The notes under the pieces were generated by a model. That model was not told the DNA's origin. It did not search any database and saw only the letters and a list, made by a program, of their open reading frames with translations. From the IMG/VR virus record IMGVR_UViG_2529293219_000028: DNA of 38,658 nucleotides, one strand, 5' to 3'. This DNA comes from a virus. Its lineage: Duplodnaviria; Heunggongvirae; Uroviricota; Caudoviricetes. Numbering within the stretch: the stretch's first letter is position 1; every line of letters starts with the position of its first letter. Positions 1 to 37,687 of this stretch are shown piece by piece. The position numbers were made by a program, and so were the translations under genes.

Positions 1-141
1 ATGGCAACTTTGTTACAACTTCATTTTGCTTTTAATGGCCCATTTGGCGACGCAATGGCTGAGCAGCTTAAACCACTTGCAGAGTCGATTAATCAGGAAC
101 CTGGTTTTCTGTGGAAGGTATGGACAGAAAGTGAAAAGAAT
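1..141 (+). pseudogene. ydhR: 5' fragment of a host ORF (YdhR-like putative monooxygenase) interrupted by the prophage end; the frame runs into phage DNA and stops at 160-162
   Basis: ATG at 1; translation [47 protein letters not shown] followed by NIARRFF and stop; under 60 aa so absent from the ORF track; YdhR identity is recalled from memory, not searched. Confidence 0.5.
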
Positions 142-158
142 ATAGCGCGGCGATTTTT

Positions 159-223
159 TTGATACCGATTTGCATTTCATTTGATACCGCTGAAAAACGC
201 CGATACGCAACTTATTTGATACT
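159..223. repeat. Three copies of TTGATAC(C/T) (159-166, 181-188, 216-223) in the about 125 bp between the host fragment and the mom stop; candidate transposase-binding repeats of the prophage right end
   Basis: Direct reading of the sequence; position matches where Mu carries its R1-R3 sites; the exact terminus could not be pinned (somewhere in 132-162). Confidence 0.4.
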
Positions 224-268: not shown

Positions 269-1006
269 TCATTCACTCTCTTTCAAACCAGTTTTAACTG
301 TTTGTGGTTTTGGGTAAGGCTGGACTTTGAATAGCTTTGTGTTGAGGCGTTTTCTGGCCCTCTTGTTCAGAAACCGGATGTAACGAAACTGTCGGAACTT
401 ATGAACACTGGCTCTGTCAATATTAGCCCTCAGATGTTCACCTCGTTGTCCGCCTCGTTTAATGGCATTCCTGCAAATCTCGTGATACCACTCGCCATCA
501 AGTTCATAGAATATTGATTCATGGCTGCCTACATAATCAAAATTGCTTGCCTGATACACGACACCAAGACAGCCACAACGCTCATCTGCAAACGACTGAA
601 CCCACTGTACCTGCGGATAAAGCTGCCTGATTAGCTTGAGCGCGTAACTGATTGCCCTTGATTCGGAGTTTCTCGGCATACAGTCATGCAGCCATAGCCG
701 GTTAAGCTCCATATATTCTCGGTTCTGCGTACCCGTTACGACGCGTGCACCACTGTTTGGGTTAAGGGCGTAACCCCATTGCATTACGCCAACAAGTTCC
801 CGTTCTGAAAATATGCCCAGATGAAGGTAGGAGTTATTTACGAAACGGTGGCTGTAATGTTTATTGACGATGACCAGTCTGGCCAGCCAGCAACTTATTG
901 TCTCAACCCGCAACTCACGGGAGCCATAACCAACGATATTGTCGTTATAGCGAATAAGTTCAGGCGTGCTGATGATTCGGGATGTGACTTGCTTTCTGTT
1001 CCCCAC
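269..1006 (-). CDS. mom: Mom-like DNA modification protein (true start may be internal)
   Basis: 245 aa ORF at the prophage right end, its 5' end overlapping the 3' end of a Com-like zinc finger ORF, as in Mu com-mom; identity rests on synteny rather than on recognised Mom sequence. Confidence 0.6.
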
Positions 1007-1160
1007 GACAGGATTTCCTTGTGTATGTGGGGTGCTCTGTGGCGCTCGGAGATGTGATTTGATTGAGGGTTTTACAGCGCGGACATTTTACTTCCAGATA
1101 ACTGAAACTGGCCCGTGCCAGTAGCTTATTGCAGTGTCGGCACCGTATGTTTCGATACAT
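960..1160 (-). CDS. com: Com-like zinc-finger translational activator of mom
   Basis: [30 protein letters not shown]... has the C-x2-C-x16-C-x2-C spacing and IRC..C NKLL / CPRC motifs of Mu Com; AGGAGG lies about 9 nt upstream of the ATG at 1160; track ORF 960..1205 trimmed to this Met. Confidence 0.75.
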
Positions 1161-1274
1161 GACCGCATAACCTCCTGCTTTGTTGTTGATGCCTTTCTCA
1201 TGCAATCGATCGACAAAAACGATCGATTCGATTTGTTTAATTGATACAACAAATAGATTGAAAAGTCATCAACA
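1161..1274 (-). promoter_or_regulatory. com-mom upstream region with two GATC sites inside TCGATCGA palindromes
   Basis: GATC at about 1208-1211 and 1221-1224, 13 bp apart, in an AT-rich leader upstream of com. Confidence 0.45.
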
Positions 1275-1739
1275 ATGATTCAGGGAGGTGATTATTTACT
1301 TAAAGAAAACGAAGAGTTAGGTGGTGAAAACGATCATAAAATGATCATTTTATTGACTTTTTATACAGTGAAGGTAGGATCACGCGTATATGTAGTATGT
1401 TTCAAATCAACAGGATACTACATAAAAGTGAAACCCAGCATAGCTGGAACTATGCTGGGTCAATCTGTAAAAACTTGCATCAATGCTTTACTTCGAGCTC
1501 GTGGCGTATCCTATGATATTCCCCGGTCTCCTGTAAAGCAGAGATGCATAAAAAGGAGATCTTTATCATGGATGAAAGAGCCTGTTTGCCCTGCCTGTAA
1601 GACTCCCTTACAGCTCATCTATCGCCGTTCTCGATCTCAAAATGGCAAGACATACAAACCCAAAAATGCTTCCTGTTTCAGGATGCTGATATGTCCTGCC
1701 TGTTCTCCCAGGAGGGAAAATACACAAAACGTGCATTAA
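1275..1739 (+). CDS. Hypothetical protein with C-terminal CPAC...CPAC zinc-ribbon-like motif; start uncertain (Met at 1275 or 1341)
   Basis: Only ORF of 60 aa or more in an AT-rich stretch; two CPAC motifs about 35 residues apart; weak RBS. Confidence 0.35.
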   Translation: MIQGGDYLLKENEELGGENDHKMIILLTFYTVKVGSRVYVVCFKSTGYYIKVKPSIAGTMLGQSVKTCINALLRARGVSYDIPRSPVKQRCIKRRSLSWMKEPVCPACKTPLQLIYRRSRSQNGKTYKPKNASCFRMLICPACSPRRENTQNVH

Positions 1740-1777: not shown

Positions 1778-2023
1778 TTACATCATAGTACCGTCAGTTC
1801 CGGGCTGAACCGGCTCTGGTTGCTCTACGGGTTGAGGATCATTTTCCGTGCTGTTTTCAGCCGGAGAACGGCCAACCATTCGGGCCAGCACTTCATCAAC
1901 ATATGCGTCGATTTGTGCCTCAAAATCCTTGCGAACCTGCGCCTTCAGCACGCGGTTCACTTCTTCAGAATAAAGTGCCTGTTTGACAAGCTCTTCAGTA
2001 ACCGTGCCTTTAATCTCTGGCAT
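1778..2023 (-). CDS. Hypothetical small acidic protein
   Basis: 81 aa ORF with AAGGAGA RBS 7 nt upstream; co-oriented with the esterase gene. Confidence 0.6.
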   Translation of the reverse strand: MPEIKGTVTEELVKQALYSEEVNRVLKAQVRKDFEAQIDAYVDEVLARMVGRSPAENSTENDPQPVEQPEPVQPGTDGTMM

Positions 2024-2058
2024 GAATATTCTCCTTTTGCAGGTATATTGCCCCGTTA

Positions 2059-2241
2059 TCAGAGCGGGGTCGGGTCGTTTGGGGATGACGGTGCCTGTGC
2101 TGTTTTACTGAGTTTTTCAGCTGCCGCATCATCAATTTTACGGCGAATATAATTTCTGATGACCTTATAACCACCGCTCACCAGATATAACGCACTGACC
2201 ACAGCGCAGAAATAAAGCAGCATTGTATGAACGAATGTCAT
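2059..2241 (-). CDS. Hypothetical small membrane protein (one N-terminal TM helix)
   Basis: 60 aa ORF; hydrophobic stretch LLYFCAVVSALYLVSGG; AAGGTAAGG RBS upstream. Confidence 0.6.
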   Translation of the reverse strand: MTFVHTMLLYFCAVVSALYLVSGGYKVIRNYIRRKIDDAAAEKLSKTAQAPSSPNDPTPL

Positions 2242-2387
2242 ATAACCTTACCTTTGATATTGACTACATAATTCGTTATCGGGTAAAAACATCGAAGCGA
2301 CTGATAACCACTCCTTCGGGAGTATTTTTATTTTCCTTTATGGGTTAGGTAGCTCCCGCCAGCCATATCATGACCGGCGGGATTTTT

Positions 2388-4427
2388 TTATTCTGTTACC
2401 GCTTTTTTCACTTCCACCACAATGCTGTCAATCAGCACCGGGTAAGTTGCATTTTTTGTGATATCCGTTACGCGGAGTTTGTCCACCGGGAAAGTTCCTA
2501 CTGGTGACTGCGTCAGGGTAAACGCGGCACCATCCTGACCATCAATAACCGGAATAACCTGAAGGCTGTTATTTCCTGCAAAACGGAAGGCCAGCGTATG
2601 CCATTCATTATCAAATGCACCAAAGGTTCCCAGTTTCTGGTTATTTGTTGCCACTTTTGCATTGTGGTACATCACATTCAGGTCTTTTGCGTCTGTCTGG
2701 ATGTAGAACGATGCCAGCAGATTATTCCCTGCATCCCCTGTCAGGGTGACACCCTGCGGCAGAGAGGAAACCGGCCAGTAAAGCCCCATGACATACTGGT
2801 TTGCCACCAGGTCGCCAGGTACTTTAAAACGACAACTGATTAAACCACCATTTTTCAGCAGTTCAGCACCAGTACCGGCATCATGATCCAGATACCAGGA
2901 TGATTTACCTGTTTCCTTGGTCAGTTTCATTGCCTTACCACCTGTGCCTCCTGCATCACTGATAATTTCAGCTTTACCGCCAGCCGGCTCCCAGCCCTGG
3001 GCTTTCAGATTTCCTTCTGACTCACTGACACGATAAGACAGCAGTGTTGTGGTTACTGCTTCAGTTTCTGAAGGTGACGGCACTGGTGCTTCAGTTTCAG
3101 AAGATGGAACATCGGCTTTTACTGTGGTTCGCCCCGCATGAGTCAGAACTGCCGTGGCCAGACGGTCGGAAATAATCCCACGACGTGCCCATGAACTGAA
3201 ATGGCTGGCCCGGTCCGCAGATGTCCAGGTGGCGGCACTGTTACGCCACGTTGAGCCGTAATAACCAATGGATTCAATATCCGGGTCTTCTGCCGGATTG
3301 TTGGTGGGTACATTCGCGTCATTTTCATCTGTCATTAATGGAACGAAATGAATGTTTTTATCTGTTTTGTTTTTGTAGCCGCCATAGATTGCCTGGTATG
3401 CCGGTTCATTTTTCTGTTTCCAGAAATACGTGGTATCGCCACAAATCCACGGAACGCCAGCAGCACTGCCACCGGTACACTGTTCCGCCTGTTCAGCCAG
3501 GTCTGCGCGGAATTTTTCCACCATCGCCAGAAACAGCGCGGAATGCTCCGTCGGCTTCGCATCAATATCAAACTCGCCCTGCATCCACACCACAGCAAGC
3601 AGGCGGTTTTTCGGGTTCTTCGCCAGTGCCGCTTTTGTCCGGCTGATTAAGTCCTTATACAGCGGCTTATCCACACCCCAGCGGGCTGAGTCCTCTGAAG
3701 CACCCGTGCTGTCACTGTACGTGCCGTCAGCACCCGCCGTGAATGCAGAACCACCACGGCAGCAGGGAACCAGCAGAATCCCCGCATCTGCCGGAATAAA
3801 CGGCAGCAGTTTTTTGGCAATGTGAAGCCCCTGACCCACGGTGCCATATTGCCCTTTAGCCACATCCGCTTTCGGGTGATTTTTTCCACTCATATCCTGC
3901 ACATCATGCAGACAGTGGTCGGCCAGAATGATGTCGTTATACTGACAGGCTTTACCTCCCGGCGTGACTGTACTGCGACGGGCTAACTGCATAATACGCG
4001 GTTCGGGGCGGTCATATGTCTCCGGCAGTGGCAGACCTTCACCGTAAGCCATACCGTTTGACTGACCAGCAAGAACCACCACGTAATACCAGGAAGGGGA
4101 GCTGGAAGCAGTTTCATTTCCTGACGGACGGGTATGTGTTTCAGCATTATCCCAGTCTGACGGTTCAGCAGTACCGGCAACATCAGCACTTAACGGAATG
4201 ACCGCACCAATACCCGCTCCGGTAATTTCCACACTCGGATCACCGGATACTGGCCTTACCCACAGGCAATCCCGTGTATTAAAACTGATGAGACAGTCAG
4301 CAAATGTCATTCCTCCTTTTGTTTCGGCCGGAGGAAAGGGAGCCTCAAGAAATGCCGCTGTACCACCGGAAACTTTAACAGTAAAGTTTCCGGGCATTGA
4401 TGATAGTTGAACCCATTTGGACGTCAT
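2388..4427 (-). CDS. Large cargo protein with a SASA/SGNH-type carbohydrate O-acetylesterase domain and a C-terminal lectin-like domain (NanS-p-like)
   Basis: 679 aa; VVVLAGQSNGMAYGEG motif at residues about 117-130; short tandem PSSETEA / PSPSETEA linker; beta-rich C-terminal third; sits between gin and com-mom. Confidence 0.6.
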   Translation of the reverse strand: MTSKWVQLSSMPGNFTVKVSGGTAAFLEAPFPPAETKGGMTFADCLISFNTRDCLWVRPVSGDPSVEITGAGIGAVIPLSADVAGTAEPSDWDNAETHTRPSGNETASSSPSWYYVVVLAGQSNGMAYGEGLPLPETYDRPEPRIMQLARRSTVTPGGKACQYNDIILADHCLHDVQDMSGKNHPKADVAKGQYGTVGQGLHIAKKLLPFIPADAGILLVPCCRGGSAFTAGADGTYSDSTGASEDSARWGVDKPLYKDLISRTKAALAKNPKNRLLAVVWMQGEFDIDAKPTEHSALFLAMVEKFRADLAEQAEQCTGGSAAGVPWICGDTTYFWKQKNEPAYQAIYGGYKNKTDKNIHFVPLMTDENDANVPTNNPAEDPDIESIGYYGSTWRNSAATWTSADRASHFSSWARRGIISDRLATAVLTHAGRTTVKADVPSSETEAPVPSPSETEAVTTTLLSYRVSESEGNLKAQGWEPAGGKAEIISDAGGTGGKAMKLTKETGKSSWYLDHDAGTGAELLKNGGLISCRFKVPGDLVANQYVMGLYWPVSSLPQGVTLTGDAGNNLLASFYIQTDAKDLNVMYHNAKVATNNQKLGTFGAFDNEWHTLAFRFAGNNSLQVIPVIDGQDGAAFTLTQSPVGTFPVDKLRVTDITKNATYPVLIDSIVVEVKKAVTE

Positions 4428-4526: not shown

Positions 4527-5087
4527 TTATTTTTCCGAAACGCTCGCAGGATAATAACGATAAAGGGTTGAAAGGCCGATATCAAAAATAAGTGCCACCT
4601 GTCTTCGACTGACACCCCCGGCCAGTAAACGCCCGACCTGCTCGTATTGTTCCTGCGTGAGACGACGGGGTCTGCCGCCGGTTCGTCCCCTTTCACGGGC
4701 AGCTGCAAGACCAGCCCGTGTCCGTTCGACAATTAATTCACGCTCCATTTCTGCCAGCGCACCCATTATGTGAAAAAAGAAGCGCCCCATGGGGGTTGAC
4801 GTATCAATGTTGTCAGTAAGACTACGAAAATTTATCCCCTGTTGCTGTAATTCATCTGTCAGCGCAACAAGGTGGCGCATACTGCGCCCCAGCCTGTCCA
4901 GTTTCCAGACCATCAGTGTGTCACCGGGTTTTAGTTTCTTCAGTGCCCGCTTCAGTCCCGGCCGCTGTGTCGTTTTACCACTCATTTTATCTTCAAAAAT
5001 CTGCTCACATCCTGCACATTCCAGCGCATTTCTTTGTAAACCTGTGTTCTGGTCATTTGTTGATACGCGTATATAGCCAATCAGCAT
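4527..5087 (-). CDS. gin: Gin/Hin/Cin-family serine DNA invertase
   Basis: MLIGYIRVSTNDQNTGLQRNALECAGCEQIFEDK...MGRFFFHIMGALAEMERELIVERT is near-identical in pattern to Mu Gin; lies 56 bp from the left boundary of the invertible segment. Confidence 0.9.
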   Translation of the reverse strand: MLIGYIRVSTNDQNTGLQRNALECAGCEQIFEDKMSGKTTQRPGLKRALKKLKPGDTLMVWKLDRLGRSMRHLVALTDELQQQGINFRSLTDNIDTSTPMGRFFFHIMGALAEMERELIVERTRAGLAAARERGRTGGRPRRLTQEQYEQVGRLLAGGVSRRQVALIFDIGLSTLYRYYPASVSEK

Positions 5088-5141: not shown

Positions 5142-5167
5142 ATCCCTGAAACCTTCGGTTTACGGGA
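5142..5167. other. Candidate gix-like crossover site (left); near-palindrome TCCCTGAAACC-TTCG-GTTTACGGGA
   Basis: Palindromic core AAACC..GGTTT exactly where the inverted-repeat homology begins, just upstream of gin. Confidence 0.55.
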
Positions 5168-5335
5168 TACTGTAAACAGGGCCGCGAATGCCCTGCCATC
5201 GAACGGAGCGGCTGTTGCAGCGAATAAACTCGCCACTCCAAGAAATATTAATGGTGTCCCATTTGACGGAACGCAGGATATAAATATTACATCGGGGATG
5301 ACGCAGTCTGTGGCTGACTCACGTTATGTTCAAAG
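5157..5335. repeat. Left inverted repeat of the invertible tail-fibre segment (about 180 bp, roughly 80% identical to the reverse complement of 6351-6529)
   Basis: Manual alignment; both copies start at GGTTTACGGGA and share runs such as CCAAGAAATATTAATGGTGT and TTTGACGGAACGC. Confidence 0.8.
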
Positions 5336-5513
5336 CATTCGAAGAGGTTCAAGGTCAACGATTGGAATGCAATATAATATTTTTGAGGTTCCTGACGGAT
5401 GCGTACTTACAGGGCTTGATGTCGCTGGTGATGGTAATGCAACGGTAACCGCATATTATCGACCTGTTCAGTTTCTGATAGATGGTTCGTGGAAAACAGC
5501 TTCCAGCGCATAA
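5157..5513 (+). CDS. Alternative tail-fibre C-terminal cassette (S'v-like), startless and currently not joined to the fibre gene
   Basis: Frame is open from 5064 with no in-frame start; encodes ...GLRDTVNRAANALPSNGAAVAANKLATPRNINGVPFDGTQDINITSGMTQS..., paralogous to residues about 205-260 of the minus-strand fibre, then diverges (ORF-track 5298..5513). Confidence 0.7.
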   Translation, partial: GLRDTVNRAANALPSNGAAVAANKLATPRNINGVPFDGTQDINITSGMTQSVADSRYVQSIRRGSRSTIGMQYNIFEVPDGCVLTGLDVAGDGNATVTAYYRPVQFLIDGSWKTASSA

Positions 5514-5592
5514 AAGTGCAGTAGTTCAAAAAACAGATTATCTGAATAAATATATGATGATTTTGTCTTTTCAACAAAAACAAGGTGAAATA

Positions 5593-6114
5593 ATGGAGCT
5601 TATTAACGTAAAACGATATTACCCGGAACACAAACCCTATGGTGAGGATGTTCAGTATTTCCAGAGTGAGGACGGAAGGGATTTTTATGAATCTATCCCG
5701 CTTTTCACAAAGAAATACAAACTCTGTATTTCGCCTGTAACGGGTATTATCTGCTCTGTTGCTGAAGATGTCTCTGCTTTATATCCGGCAGGTTTTACTG
5801 TTGTTGAAGTGGACGAACTGCCGGAAGGTGTGAATATTGACGGTAACTGGCAGTTTTCTGATGGCCTGATATCAAAGGTGCCGGTAAACTGGAAGACGGT
5901 TGCTGAAAAGCGCCGCTCATCGCTGCTCCAGGAAGCCAACGAAACTGTGGATGACTGGAAAACGGAATTAAAACTGGACATGATTAGCGATGAAAATAAA
6001 TTACAGCTGACGCGCTGGATGGCGTATATCCGACAGCTTAAAGAAATGCACTTTAATGATATTGCCAGTGAGGGGCATTACCAGGCGATTCCCTGGCCGG
6101 AAAAACCGGAATAA
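5593..6114 (+). CDS. Tail fibre assembly (chaperone) protein, Mu U/U'-like
   Basis: MELINVKRYYPEHKPYGEDV... with the AAGGTG RBS before the ATG at 5593 chosen as start; ORF-track frame 5482..6114; identity called from position and general Tfa-like character, not a recognised motif. Confidence 0.7.
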   Translation: MELINVKRYYPEHKPYGEDVQYFQSEDGRDFYESIPLFTKKYKLCISPVTGIICSVAEDVSALYPAGFTVVEVDELPEGVNIDGNWQFSDGLISKVPVNWKTVAEKRRSSLLQEANETVDDWKTELKLDMISDENKLQLTRWMAYIRQLKEMHFNDIASEGHYQAIPWPEKPE

Positions 6115-6148: not shown

Positions 6149-7060
6149 TTACACTGAACTTACCGTTCTCCAGGCATTATTAATATAAATCTGAACCGGG
6201 CGATAATAGACCCCACCGATATTGTCCGCAGACCGGGAGCCGGTTTCCTGCACGTTAATTCCGGAAAGCATACAACCGGAAGGTGCGCTGTAATTCCATG
6301 ACATTTCATTGCCTCCGGGTGAATGATAGCTCTGTGCTCCAAGCTGAACATTCTGTACATACCGGCCATCTGCGGTTGACTGCGTCATTCCTGACGTGAT
6401 GTTGATATCCAGCGTTCCGTCAAAAGGAACACCATTAATATTTCTTGGGGTGGCGAGTCTGTTTGCTGCCACGGCGGTTCCACCCGATGGCAGGGCATCA
6501 GCAGCCTTATTTACCGTTTCCCGTAAACCAACGTTATCGATAAAAGCGCCTTTATCCGGAATGTCTGCGCCGTTCTGCTCCCTGCGCAGGTAACGGTTAT
6601 CACCTTCGCTTTTGCTGTAAACATCCAGATTATTACGGGCGGTTCCCGCATTCTCCAGGTCGGCAAGGTTCTGATCCTTCGCCAGAGCATTAACGTCACC
6701 GGGACCAAGACTGTTTTTTGTGGCAAGCGCCCCAAGACCAAGATAACCACGGGCAAGACGCTGGGCTTCCGCACCGGCATCAGCAATTTCTTTCAGGTTG
6801 TTTTTCCGGGAAAAGGCATTCGCAGCGATAATGGCTTTAATGGACAGCGTAAGCTGGTTTAACTGCGCCTTATCCGGCTGAATACTGGCTTCAGCCAGAA
6901 TATTCAGCAGTTCGGCCTGGAGAATATTCAGCCAGTCCTGACCAATCCAGCTGATACCTTTTTGTCCGTCACCTTCGGTAAACCAGGTGGTGGTATTACT
7001 CTGCGCCGGTGCCAGCGCAGGCATATTCGCCACGCCGGAATTATTATCAACATGGAACAT
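6149..7060 (-). CDS. Tail fibre protein (constant part plus the currently expressed variable tip)
   Basis: Start placed at the internal Met at 7060, whose ATG overlaps the upstream gene's stop by 1 nt (track start 7114 would overlap by 55 nt); C-terminal part runs through the right inverted repeat. Confidence 0.8.
   Translation of the reverse strand: MFHVDNNSGVANMPALAPAQSNTTTWFTEGDGQKGISWIGQDWLNILQAELLNILAEASIQPDKAQLNQLTLSIKAIIAANAFSRKNNLKEIADAGAEAQRLARGYLGLGALATKNSLGPGDVNALAKDQNLADLENAGTARNNLDVYSKSEGDNRYLRREQNGADIPDKGAFIDNVGLRETVNKAADALPSGGTAVAANRLATPRNINGVPFDGTLDINITSGMTQSTADGRYVQNVQLGAQSYHSPGGNEMSWNYSAPSGCMLSGINVQETGSRSADNIGGVYYRPVQIYINNAWRTVSSV
6351..6529. repeat. Right inverted repeat of the invertible segment, inside the tail fibre gene
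   Basis: Reverse complement aligns with 5157-5335. Confidence 0.8.
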
Positions 7061-7620
7061 TAAATATTCTCCTCTTCGTGACTGTTTGCATATACGTAAA
7101 TAAACGTCTGCCATGCAGGCTTATAACGGTTCAGAATACATTCCAGCGCACCGCCTTCATAAATACGCAGCGGCGTGAGAATATCATCCAGCACATTCAT
7201 ATTCCGGTAGCCGGTTTCACTGTTAATCGTGACAATACTGACCCACTGTGAATCCGGTGATGGCTGAATATCTATTTCATAACCAAACTCTGCCGCAAAC
7301 CGGATATAAAATTCACGGTTAAGAGAGGGTTTCATCCGGTATTTATTCCCGGCATAACGCTGACGCTCCTGAATGGTTGCGCCGGTCATATCACATTCCG
7401 GTAACCCCAGATAACGCTCCCAGTCTTCCAGCAGCAGACGGGATGAATCAGGAAAACGTTCTGCCAGCATCTGGTTACCGGTCCAGGAAACACGCTCCGT
7501 GGAATGACTGAGGCCCAGGCACAAAGCCGCAAGAACGGATGACGGCCGCTTATCCCATGCCAGCCCGTCAGGCAGCAACTGCAACAGGGCGCGCTGATGC
7601 GGGGTCAGGGTTACAGCCAT
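7060..7620 (-). CDS. Tail/baseplate protein (Mu gp48-like)
   Basis: 186 aa; position between the baseplate J-like gene and the fibre gene. Confidence 0.7.
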   Translation of the reverse strand: MAVTLTPHQRALLQLLPDGLAWDKRPSSVLAALCLGLSHSTERVSWTGNQMLAERFPDSSRLLLEDWERYLGLPECDMTGATIQERQRYAGNKYRMKPSLNREFYIRFAAEFGYEIDIQPSPDSQWVSIVTINSETGYRNMNVLDDILTPLRIYEGGALECILNRYKPAWQTFIYVYANSHEEENI

Positions 7621-35596: not shown

Positions 35597-37687
35597 TCAG
35601 GCCAGCGGGTCATTTTCTTTTAATTTCGCTTCGAGCAACTGCAATCCCCGCTGGAAATTGCGCTCGTATTCTTCATCAGGCTCATCATCAATGGCAGGTT
35701 GCTGAACGGCCACCGTATTACCTACCGGGCGATAGATGTTTTCCAGCCAGGGCTCCTGCGGCTTGTGCTCCAGCACGTTGACAACCTCATCCTCGGCATC
35801 ACGGATTTTTTCCTCTGCGCGTTTACGCATGCCTTTAAGGCGTTGCTGCTGTTTGTAGTATTCCGCGCTAACCGGGAAGGCTTCGCGTTTATTACCGTCC
35901 CATACCGCCTCGCAAATCACGCTGCCATCCAGGCGACGTACGGTAATTCGTTCGGCATCATGAATGTCATAGCTGATAAGCACCTTGCGGCCATGCTCAT
36001 CACGCAGCTCGGGCGCGTAGTAAATATTATTCAGCCAGCGTATTTCACAGCGTCTTACAGGGCGTTCCACCATCGGCCGGAACATGTCCCGCAATTCCAC
36101 ATCGGACAGCCATTCAATTTCCGTGTCCTCTTCCGCCAGGCGTTTTTTTCTGAACTCCGCCGGGCTGTAATGCTTGCCGTTCGGCTTCACCGGTAATTCA
36201 TCGTGCGGCCGGTTGTTGTACCACTCAACACCATCACGAATGGCATCAATCAGTTCAGACCAGGACGGTAAATCACGCATCGCTGACTGCTGCCGGGCGT
36301 TCAGCCGTTTGCCCTGTTGCAGGGCAGTAAATGCCGAGCGTAAATCGCGGTTGGTTTTGCGTAACGTCTCGCGATCTGCACCTTTCCCGAAATAGGTGCG
36401 GTATTTACGGGCTATGCGCATCGGTAATGTGCGGTTAAGCCGTTCGATAATGCCTCGTCCCTGCGGATTACCGGCAATCCCGGTCGGGTGATTAATCCCC
36501 AGTCGCGGCAGTATCCCCACAACCTCCTTATCCAGGATGTCGGCGGTTTCCCCGGAGCCGTTATCCGAGTAATACAGAAACGGTTTGCCGTGATGGCGAA
36601 TGCCGTGCTGTATGGCACCGGCTACGGCGAAAACATTTTCAGCCAGGTCAAGGCTCCAGCCCACCACAAAGCGCGTGCCACCGTCGATAACAAAGGTCAC
36701 TTCCGGTGCAAATGGCCGACCGTGAACCGGGTGTGCGCATTTCAGCTTCATGCCGTGACCGTCACCAATCCAGACATAATTCACCGGCATTCTGGACCAG
36801 TCGCGGCGCGTGAATCCCTCAAGCTGGCGGTATTCACTGCCGGTCACCCGGCCTTTTTGTTTCACCACTTCCGGCAGTTTCTTCATTGCGCGGCGAATGG
36901 TGTCATAAGACGGCATGATATCGAGCATATAAGGCTCATCAGCGTGCCGGTGCTGCCATTCAGCGACAAAATCCTCGTAAGCCTCGGTCATTGGTCGGCC
37001 GTTTGACTGGCGATACTGCGCCAGAAATTCGGGCAGCCAGTTAATATCTTCGGCTTTTATTTCCTGGCGTTTACCCGGTGCCAGTAAAAGCAGGCGTTCA
37101 GCGGCGTTCTGTGCCTTGTTAAAGGCCGCAATCCATCGCTTCAGCGTGATTTCACTCAACGCACGGCTGTTTCCCTTTTTGGCGTTCGCCGTCTCAACCA
37201 TTGCCACAATGCGCTCGTCCAGCTGTGAACGTGCCAGGTTGTCAACGATAAACCGGATAGCCTTCGCGCAGCTGAAACCGGGTTGTTGCGCGACTTTCAT
37301 CACTTCGCTGACGATCGCGATTCGTGCATCAGCCACCTGGCGCTGGTTTTCAGTCAGGGCATTGAGGCGTTCGACCATCAGTTGTGGTGATCCGCGATAT
37401 GCCTCCACCGCATCAACCACGTCAGATGAGCGTCTGGCCTTTGTCACCACCGGAGCCGGTGATTCATCGGCTTTTTGCGTCATCAGTTGCAGGGCATAAC
37501 GTTCACGTAATGCCTGCTGCGTCACTTCAGGTAAACAGTCGATGCTGTATTCAGTTGCTTTAGAGCCTGAGCGACGACGGGAACAACAGCTTTTCCCTTG
37601 TACGTAACGTTGTAATGCCTGGCGAATACCTTTTGTTGTAGCAGGCATTCCGGGCGCGCCAATCAGTTCTTTTGCAATGACATACAT
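35597..37687 (-). CDS. DDE transposase, Mu A-like
   Basis: 696 aa; catalytic-core motifs WIGDGHGMKLKCAHPVHGRPF and LYYSDNGSGE; follows ner with start/stop overlap. Confidence 0.9.
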   Translation of the reverse strand: MYVIAKELIGAPGMPATTKGIRQALQRYVQGKSCCSRRRSGSKATEYSIDCLPEVTQQALRERYALQLMTQKADESPAPVVTKARRSSDVVDAVEAYRGSPQLMVERLNALTENQRQVADARIAIVSEVMKVAQQPGFSCAKAIRFIVDNLARSQLDERIVAMVETANAKKGNSRALSEITLKRWIAAFNKAQNAAERLLLLAPGKRQEIKAEDINWLPEFLAQYRQSNGRPMTEAYEDFVAEWQHRHADEPYMLDIMPSYDTIRRAMKKLPEVVKQKGRVTGSEYRQLEGFTRRDWSRMPVNYVWIGDGHGMKLKCAHPVHGRPFAPEVTFVIDGGTRFVVGWSLDLAENVFAVAGAIQHGIRHHGKPFLYYSDNGSGETADILDKEVVGILPRLGINHPTGIAGNPQGRGIIERLNRTLPMRIARKYRTYFGKGADRETLRKTNRDLRSAFTALQQGKRLNARQQSAMRDLPSWSELIDAIRDGVEWYNNRPHDELPVKPNGKHYSPAEFRKKRLAEEDTEIEWLSDVELRDMFRPMVERPVRRCEIRWLNNIYYAPELRDEHGRKVLISYDIHDAERITVRRLDGSVICEAVWDGNKREAFPVSAEYYKQQQRLKGMRKRAEEKIRDAEDEVVNVLEHKPQEPWLENIYRPVGNTVAVQQPAIDDEPDEEYERNFQRGLQLLEAKLKENDPLA

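Follow-up and report, generated by a model that had tools for sequence, protein, structure and literature searches.

The window, that is the whole stretch of 38,658 nucleotides (nt) of the virus record IMGVR_UViG_2529293219_000028, is an Sp18-type Mu-like prophage. Its gene set comprises the Mu transposase A, the B ATPase, Gam, Mor, lysis genes and a gpT-family major head protein, as well as sheath, tube, baseplate gp45-48, tail fibre, an invertible segment, gin, com and mom. Between gin and com lies the gene of a 679-amino-acid (aa) protein with the features of a sialate O-acetylesterase of the NanS-p type, whose domains are joined by flexible Pro/Ser/Thr/Glu linkers:

2388..4427, minus strand: coding sequence (CDS) of the 679-aa NanS-p-type esterase, with ATG start and the stop codon at 2388-2390.
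4167..4427, minus strand: head module, aa 1-87, all-beta in the AlphaFold2 (AF2) model, without Pfam match, in place of the domain DUF1737.
4098..4166, minus strand: linker 1, aa 88-110, AEPSDWDNAETHTRPSGNETASSS, 23 low-complexity residues with a predicted local distance difference test score (pLDDT) below 50.
3129..4097, minus strand: SASA/SGNH type II catalytic domain, aa 111-433, 58% identical to NanS (3pt5).
3054..3128, minus strand: linker 2, aa 434-458, an imperfect PSSETEA/PSPSETEA duplication, TTVKADVPSSETEAPVPSPSETEAV.
2391..3053, minus strand: C-terminal jelly-roll lectin-like domain (DUF6645), aa 459-679 (PF20350, 6yp6).

The central domain carries the enzymatic identity of the protein. 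Residues 116-312 match the Pfam family PF03629 (SASA) with an E-value of 6.5e-12 and 46 bits (cutoff 24.8), and aa 104-428 match the structure of Escherichia coli NanS/YjhS (3pt5) with an E-value of 2e-118 (phmmer) and 58% identity over 320 aligned residues. Thus, the SASA assignment that an earlier, sequence-only reading had made is borne out by the Pfam profile. The esterase motif VVVLAGQSNGMAYGEG on which that reading relied is present as well, with GQSN at aa 121-124 (window 4056-4067), Ser123 at 4059-4061 and Gln122 as the oxyanion residue. The SGNH block 'RASH', which is also the NanS-p form (PMC10462455), is found at aa 406-409 (3201-3212), with His409 at 3201-3203. Catalysis in NanS is known to depend on Ser19 and His301, with an oxyanion hole of Gln18 and a Gly and without a catalytic Asp (PMC9063846). 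Ser19, His301 and Gln18 map to S123, H409 and Q122, which are invariant across twelve family members (alignment A1). The sequence-only reading had proposed that a fold lacking a Ser-His-Asp arrangement would speak against an esterase; this yardstick is wrong for the family, because NanS works by Ser and His without a catalytic Asp, and both Ser123 and His409 are kept. In the full-length AF2 model, obtained from a shallow 12-sequence alignment, the mean pLDDT is 54.5 and that of the SASA domain 25-50. We took the SASA fold from the 58% identity to a crystal structure and left the model aside for active-site geometry. The ratio of non-synonymous to synonymous substitution rates (dN/dS) of the SASA domain is 0.10-0.12, and hydropathy revealed no signal-peptide-like hydrophobic stretch in the 679-aa esterase.

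The C-terminal part turned out to be beta-rich, as had been expected, both in the AF2 model and by its structural match: aa 459-674 correspond to the C-terminal domain structure of phi24B NanS-p (6yp6) with an E-value of 1e-111 and 79% identity, and aa 524-642 match PF20350 (DUF6645) with an E-value of 2.4e-69, above cutoff. In vb_24B_21 of phi24B, Y510, Y515, Y540 and F611 were proposed as carbohydrate-binding aromatics (PMC10462455); they map to the conserved residues Y545, Y550, Y575 and F646. The dN/dS of this domain is 0.12-0.24. The preceding linker 2 had been described as a tandem PSSETEA/PSPSETEA linker. It exists as a short, imperfect peptide duplication, but it is not a tandem repeat of the DNA, as Tandem Repeats Finder detected no DNA-level repeat at linker 2. 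Furthermore, it is length-polymorphic: the common 669-aa allele is shorter by exactly 10 residues at this position.

The CDS matches PHROG 143 (E=0), and an identical CDS from identical prophages is listed in RefSeq as WP_010917876.1, a 'DUF6645 domain-containing protein'. The exact 679-aa protein is found on at least 999 contigs, and NCBI and UniRef name it 'sialate O-acetylesterase'. The enzyme annotation is therefore already known, and the gene is common in Shiga-toxigenic E. coli (STEC). From sequence comparison, the assignment of the 679-aa protein as a NanS-p-type sialate O-acetylesterase is secure.

If compared to known systems, the protein is closest in design to NanS-p of lambdoid phages, such as L0105/z1466 of 933W and vb_24B_21 (gp84) of phi24B. 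It shares with them about 80% identity in the SASA domain and 77-82% in the DUF6645 jelly-roll, the linker-separated modules, a downstream DUF1378 gene (and, in some phages, DUF826), the lack of a signal peptide and alleles that recombine. The resemblance to NanS-p that the sequence-only reading had proposed is thus correct for the SASA and C-terminal domains. It had overlooked, however, that the N-terminal ~110 residues are unrelated to those of the lambdoid proteins (13-19% identity in the alignment). Instead of DUF1737, a domain of about 55 aa with one alpha helix and three strands, the protein carries an all-beta module of about 87 aa and a longer linker; PF08410 (DUF1737), which the lambdoid homologues possess, gave no match at E <= 0.1 in the esterase. 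Its genomic setting differs likewise: the gene lies in the interval from gin to com-mom in a transposable Mu-like myophage and not in that from stx to the lysis genes under Q antitermination, and its host prophage is, in contrast to those of lambdoid NanS-p, not inducible by SOS or mitomycin. Measured against the features of NanS-p, the protein is prophage-encoded and combines SASA with DUF6645, and it lacks DUF1737 and the location in a lambdoid late operon, downstream of stx/Q and upstream of the lysis genes, for which phage 1717 served as comparison. E. coli NanS itself (YjhS, 3pt5) has the 58% identical SGNH type II catalytic domain with the Ser/His pair and the Gln/Gly oxyanion hole. It is, however, a chromosomal single-domain protein of about 326 aa within the nan regulon, without head or lectin-like domain.

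Taken together, we assign a probability of roughly 85% to the following reading: a Mu-like prophage of the Sp18 type in STEC carries, as cargo at its right end, a gene for a functional sialate O-acetylesterase of the NanS-p type. NanS-p homologues are active esterases on Neu5,9Ac2, support growth and cleave O-acetylated mucin glycans (PMC8065619), and NanS-p is thought to help enterohaemorrhagic E. coli (EHEC) and other STEC to draw nutrients from the O-acetylated sialic acids in gut mucin. Judged by NanS and the NanS-p proteins of 933W, EDL933 and O104:H4, the enzyme would act on Neu5,9Ac2 and mucin O-glycans, where it would take off 9-O-acetyl groups and further O-acetyl groups. As for its homologues, it would be synthesized in the cytoplasm and would reach its substrate once the phage lyses a fraction of the cells. 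The sialic acid might thereby become usable by surviving lysogens, with the C-terminal domain probably keeping the enzyme on glycans.

The position of the gene was compared with that in phage Mu, where gin extends to 35673 and com begins at 35768, leaving a gap of 94 nt. Hence Mu itself has indeed only gin and then com-mom at this end, as previously noted, and the 679-aa protein does lie between both in the window according to the open reading frame (ORF) list and the Pfam and PHROG assignments of its neighbours. However, where one extra gene relative to Mu had been counted, the insert is a block of about 3.3 kb with four ORFs, of which the esterase is one. The genes from gin to mom are co-oriented with the tail genes, with a reverse 154-aa ORF as the sole exception, and the orientation of the esterase with the late genes was stated correctly. 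The neighbouring genes are:

4527..5087, minus strand: gin-type serine DNA invertase of the Mu-like backbone, upstream of the esterase (PF00239 and PF02796, PHROG 125).
2059..2241, minus strand: DUF1378 small protein of 60 aa with an N-terminal hydrophobic helix (PF07125, E 1.2e-38).
1778..2023, minus strand: DUF826 small protein of 81 aa, acidic, the final cassette gene (PF05696, E 2.8e-15).
1275..1739, plus strand: 154-aa reverse ORF between DUF826 and com (PHROG 26524 only, function unassigned).
960..1205, minus strand: com, Mu-like backbone, downstream (Pfam, with PF10122 and PF25680 for com/mom, and PHROGs).
269..1006, minus strand: mom, Mu-like backbone, downstream (same Pfam and PHROG evidence as com).

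Part of this block behaves as a mobile unit, which was delimited by the sliding nucleotide identity against a body-swapped Mu-like locus (L017):

2000..4088, minus strand: exchange unit of SASA, C-terminal domain, DUF1378 and the start of DUF826.

Between otherwise ~100% identical prophages, this unit is replaced by divergent alleles. In the four loci L016-L019, identity is 98-100% from gin over the intergenic region and the head to linker 1, whereas it drops to about 67% in SASA, 38-45% in the C-terminal domain and about 58% in DUF1378, and returns to 95-99% in DUF826. In L017, linker 1 is identical up to '...SSPSWYYV'. The upstream breakpoint (~4088) coincides with the start of homology to lambdoid nanS-p, which begins on both the DNA and the protein level at window 4082-4089 (residue ~102), and the right breakpoint (~2000) lies at the 5' end of DUF826. 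Beyond the esterase, homology to lambdoid phages is restricted to the protein level (DUF1378). In its body, the esterase is closer to lambdoid alleles (SASA ~81%, C-terminal domain ~78%); identity to the other clade of Mu-like copies is lower, at 70-74%. One protein (P0068) is a clean recombinant: as far as residue ~250 it does not differ from a lambdoid allele, and from there on it does not differ from the protein of the window. Given the breakpoints and the body-swapped loci, the head and linker 1, together the first ~110 residues, belong to the Mu-like backbone, while SASA, the C-terminal domain and DUF1378 form an exchangeable cassette that recombines with lambdoid nanS-p. The head stays constant while the enzymatic body behind it changes. 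The enzyme as such is an ordinary one; the interest lies in the swap of the head module, a new variant of the architecture, and in the exchange of the cassette between two unrelated phage types.

The cassette partners follow the esterase in both phage types. In Stx phages, DUF826 and DUF1378 genes are located between nanS-p and S (PMC10462455), and in the Stx2 phage 1717 a DUF1378 homologue with 53% identity lies directly downstream of nanS-p. DUF1378 is found downstream of the esterase in all Mu-like loci examined, and it changes along with the esterase body in the swaps. Such constant association points to a functional tie of DUF1378 and DUF826 to the esterase, perhaps in its release or in membrane targeting.

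The head module was traced through several databases. By tblastn against 50,697 phage records it was found only in two Mu-inserted records, a pattern scan of 185,579 species-representative genomes did not detect it, and an exhaustive phmmer search of 1.84e9 representatives delivered only five matching proteins. Genuine matches comprise pieces of this protein itself, the proteins of a second E. coli/Shigella sonnei clade (clade 2) and one Salmonella enterica protein; a word-indexed search, both with the single sequence and with a profile, found no head lineage beyond the same three esterase lineages. A further candidate, the 1,445-aa repeat protein P0125 with 35% identity over aa 53-103, was judged to be a compositional or beta-repeat match. 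Head identity is 60% to clade 2, with residues 1-10 conserved, and 29% to the Salmonella protein, which continues into SASA. All 35 head-bearing loci have Mu-type neighbours and none has a lambdoid context: upstream lie baseplate gp47/gp48, the tail fibre and usually gin, downstream DUF1378, DUF826 and com-mom, with a C5 methylase replacing mom in some. Within these sequence collections, the head module is confined to esterases encoded by Mu-like prophages, with E. coli, Shigella and Salmonella as hosts. Esterases of clade 2 (P0083/P0085/P0087) and of Salmonella (P0128) share the three-part architecture, the head and the right-end position after tail fibre and gin, and clade 2 also the DUF1378/DUF826 followers. 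Their bodies are 70-74% identical to that of the window protein, lower than the values for lambdoid alleles, and some prophages of these types carry a C5 DNA methylase for mom or are without gin.

One might argue that such a module is just a scar left by gene fusion, or that the 5' end of the gene was called too far upstream, with translation starting downstream or a useless N-terminus being tolerated. The lack of homologues outside these fusions and of any Pfam family would fit, and its persistence through body swaps can be explained by the mechanics of recombination alone. However, between the two E. coli clades the proportion of non-synonymous differences (pN) in the head is 0.24 against 0.79 for synonymous differences (pS), with synonymous sites saturated. 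This pattern identifies the head as a selected coding domain, and the identities of ~60% to clade 2 and 29% to Salmonella persist despite that saturation. Conservation starts at the very first residues (M, W5), which supports Met1 as the start. After Met40, the next Met is Met126 inside GQSNGMAYGEG, leaving no in-frame Met near the start of SASA, and RefSeq calls the full ORF. In addition, AF2 predicts a compact all-beta domain of six strands with pLDDT of ~85-90 over residues 11-70. We thus hold a non-functional head to be highly improbable. A cupin-type enzymatic role of the head was rejected as well, since no His occurs within residues 1-87.

What might such a head do instead? A possible answer comes from the lambdoid relatives. 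DUF1737 of phi24B gp84 is a hexameric capsid-decoration domain, the esterase is present in virions, and DUF1737 is mostly found as a single-domain protein (preprint 10.64898/2026.04.10.717836). By analogy only, the head might dock the esterase on the Mu-type virion as DUF1737 does on the phi24B capsid. Bound to the capsid or to another surface of the virion, esterase and lectin domain would sit on the particle as decoration, where their targets would be mucus or acetylated glycans of bacterial surfaces; release by cleavage in the linker might follow later, as proposed for phi24B gp84. Several findings are in line with this idea. Among the sequences examined, the head tracks the phage type (the 35 Mu-like loci mentioned above) and never occurs in esterases of lambdoid context, and purifying selection acts on it. 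The linker behind it is flexible and contains an SSP motif similar to that described where phi24B gp84 is cleaved; linker 1 is poorly conserved, with 12-18% identity to clade 2. Furthermore, the weak structural neighbours of the head in a viral library are stand-alone phage proteins of ~90 aa, which parallels the mostly single-domain DUF1737. The layout also is as one would expect for a decoration protein and resembles the capsid decoration proteins T4 Hoc and phi24B gp84, which carry glycan-binding or enzymatic modules, in that a small N-terminal module is followed by a flexible linker and outward glycan-interacting domains. In contrast, there is no sequence similarity or significant structural similarity to either of them.

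A number of points weigh against our interpretation and in particular against a docking function of the head. The argument is purely analogical, and the phi24B result itself stems from a preprint. Canonical Mu has an undecorated T=7 capsid without decoration or cement proteins (PMC11915804), and the esterase gene lies outside the head and tail clusters, adjoining gin and mom. The fold comparison of the head gave no significant match, including to DUF1737 or any known decoration protein, and on the sequence level the head resembles neither of these. That the head is kept through body swaps is expected from homologous recombination alone, because lambdoid phages share no sequence upstream of SASA. 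As to expression, mitomycin C does not induce Sp18 (PMC2669165), and a promoter consensus scan found promoter-like sites to be no commoner than in shuffled sequence. Regarding the literature, we found no paper on a Mu-like nanS-p, this allele or the head module, although a mention in Rangel/Vimr 2016 or Saile 2016 is possible. Display of the esterase on the virion is therefore a tentative proposal, and we consider it rather unlikely. The same doubtful standing applies to the wider idea that NanS-p might be virion-displayed in two unrelated morphotypes, each with its own adaptor (DUF1737 or the head module), with the body cassette shuttling between them by recombination.

Another function that had been envisaged is receptor modification, in which the enzyme would deacetylate O-acetylated O-antigen of the lipopolysaccharide or the capsule on target cells and so lay bare the receptor for adsorption, like esterase tailspikes, with host sialoglycans not being its substrate. 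This possibility was raised for NanS-p (PMC8065619), and the gene directly follows the tail-fibre/invertase region. Residues 210-311 weakly match the 'tail protein' family phrog_25867 (E 4.4e-05) as well; however, this match likely reflects generic SGNH similarity. Furthermore, the catalytic domain shares 58% identity with an esterase whose action on 9-O-acetyl-Neu5Ac has been defined biochemically, Neu5,9Ac2 and mucin are substrates of close NanS-p homologues, and neither a tailspike-type trimerisation domain nor a baseplate-attachment domain was detected with Pfam and PHROG. Consequently, we regard a role in adsorption as very unlikely, and the NanS-p-type esterase acting on sialic acids remains our preferred reading.

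A wholly different phage type has acquired the same enzymatic body and combines it with a phage-type-specific head. This constitutes a natural experiment, asking whether the new head docks on Mu-type particles. If so, the head would be without precedent as an accessory (decoration) protein domain in a Mu-type virion, and particle display of a mucin-glycan esterase, beyond its release in lysates, would be the conserved trait under selection. If the head does not dock, it would have another role, and the capsid-binding story would be specific to lambdoid phages. Besides, the expression regime of the esterase probably differs from that of stx-linked nanS-p, as Sp18 is not SOS-inducible. Sp18 of O157 Sakai is intact and spontaneously induced, and its DNA is efficiently packaged (PMC2669165; PMC7430833). 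Since Sp18-type prophages are induced spontaneously and not by SOS, the Mu-like copy may supply esterase when the copies in Stx phages are silent. Counting or typing of nanS-p that relies on DUF1737 or on stx linkage will miss the Mu-like copy.

The host phage type is transposable and widespread in STEC (O157, O26, O103, O111). The esterase gene is present in about 205 of 5,426 complete E. coli genomes, with up to 4 copies per genome, and in at least three Mu-like lineages. Thus, a NanS-p-type esterase in a Mu-like prophage, which had been called unusual, is so in relative terms only. Many O157:H7, O26 and O103 genomes contain the 4-kb cargo region with 100% identity, at differing chromosomal positions, as expected for a phage that transposes. 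At window 1-162 lies the 5' part of the host gene ydhR, which is broken by the prophage end at ~132-137. This junction between ydhR and the prophage occurs in a single one of the 5,426 complete E. coli genomes, that of the O157:H7 strain SS TX 313-1, and in other strains the insertion sites of the same prophage include ureC, sorM, prpD-prpE and phnM. Two Shiga toxin-converting phage genomes (LC727881.1 and LC727895.1, L001; Stx2c- and Stx1a-converting) have this Mu-like phage transposed into them, and a 4-bp duplication of the target is annotated at each insertion. In a composite of this kind, of Stx phage and Mu-like phage, two nanS-p-type genes would be present.

Some further observations concern the surroundings of the cassette. 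The reverse 154-aa ORF (1275-1739, plus strand) lies in a low-GC patch (37-41% GC) and encodes two CxxC pairs, which are zinc-ribbon-like, with a weak match to Trm112p. Among Mu-like prophages that are otherwise similar, it is present, truncated or absent, and it has the look of a separate accessory 'moron'. A defence role was rejected for the cargo ORFs, this reverse ORF included, as a PADLOC scan delivered no defence-system matches for them. Two GC-rich hairpins, CCCGCCGG...CTGGCGGG and ACTCCCGAAGGAGT, are situated at 2290-2385 between the stop codon of the esterase and DUF1378. Because an A-run precedes each of them on the coding strand, we read them as intrinsic terminators of the plus strand and not of the esterase transcript; they may block antisense transcription arriving from the reverse ORF.

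In two clade-2 prophages (L003 and L005; at ~13.8-14.8 kb in L003), com is followed not by mom but by a C5 cytosine methyltransferase of 350 aa (PF00145), which is an alternative anti-restriction modification module in the com-controlled slot. Finally, adjoining gin, two inverted repeats of 185 nt (5148-5332 and 6354-6538) with 77% complementarity are found 1,021 nt apart. They flank the C-terminus of the tail fibre, an assembly gene (5482-6114, plus strand) and an alternative C-terminal fibre fragment (5298-5513, plus strand). This segment is a G-segment-like invertible host-range switch. In the captured orientation, the sole assembly-chaperone gene runs antisense to the complete fibre gene (6149-7114, minus strand).

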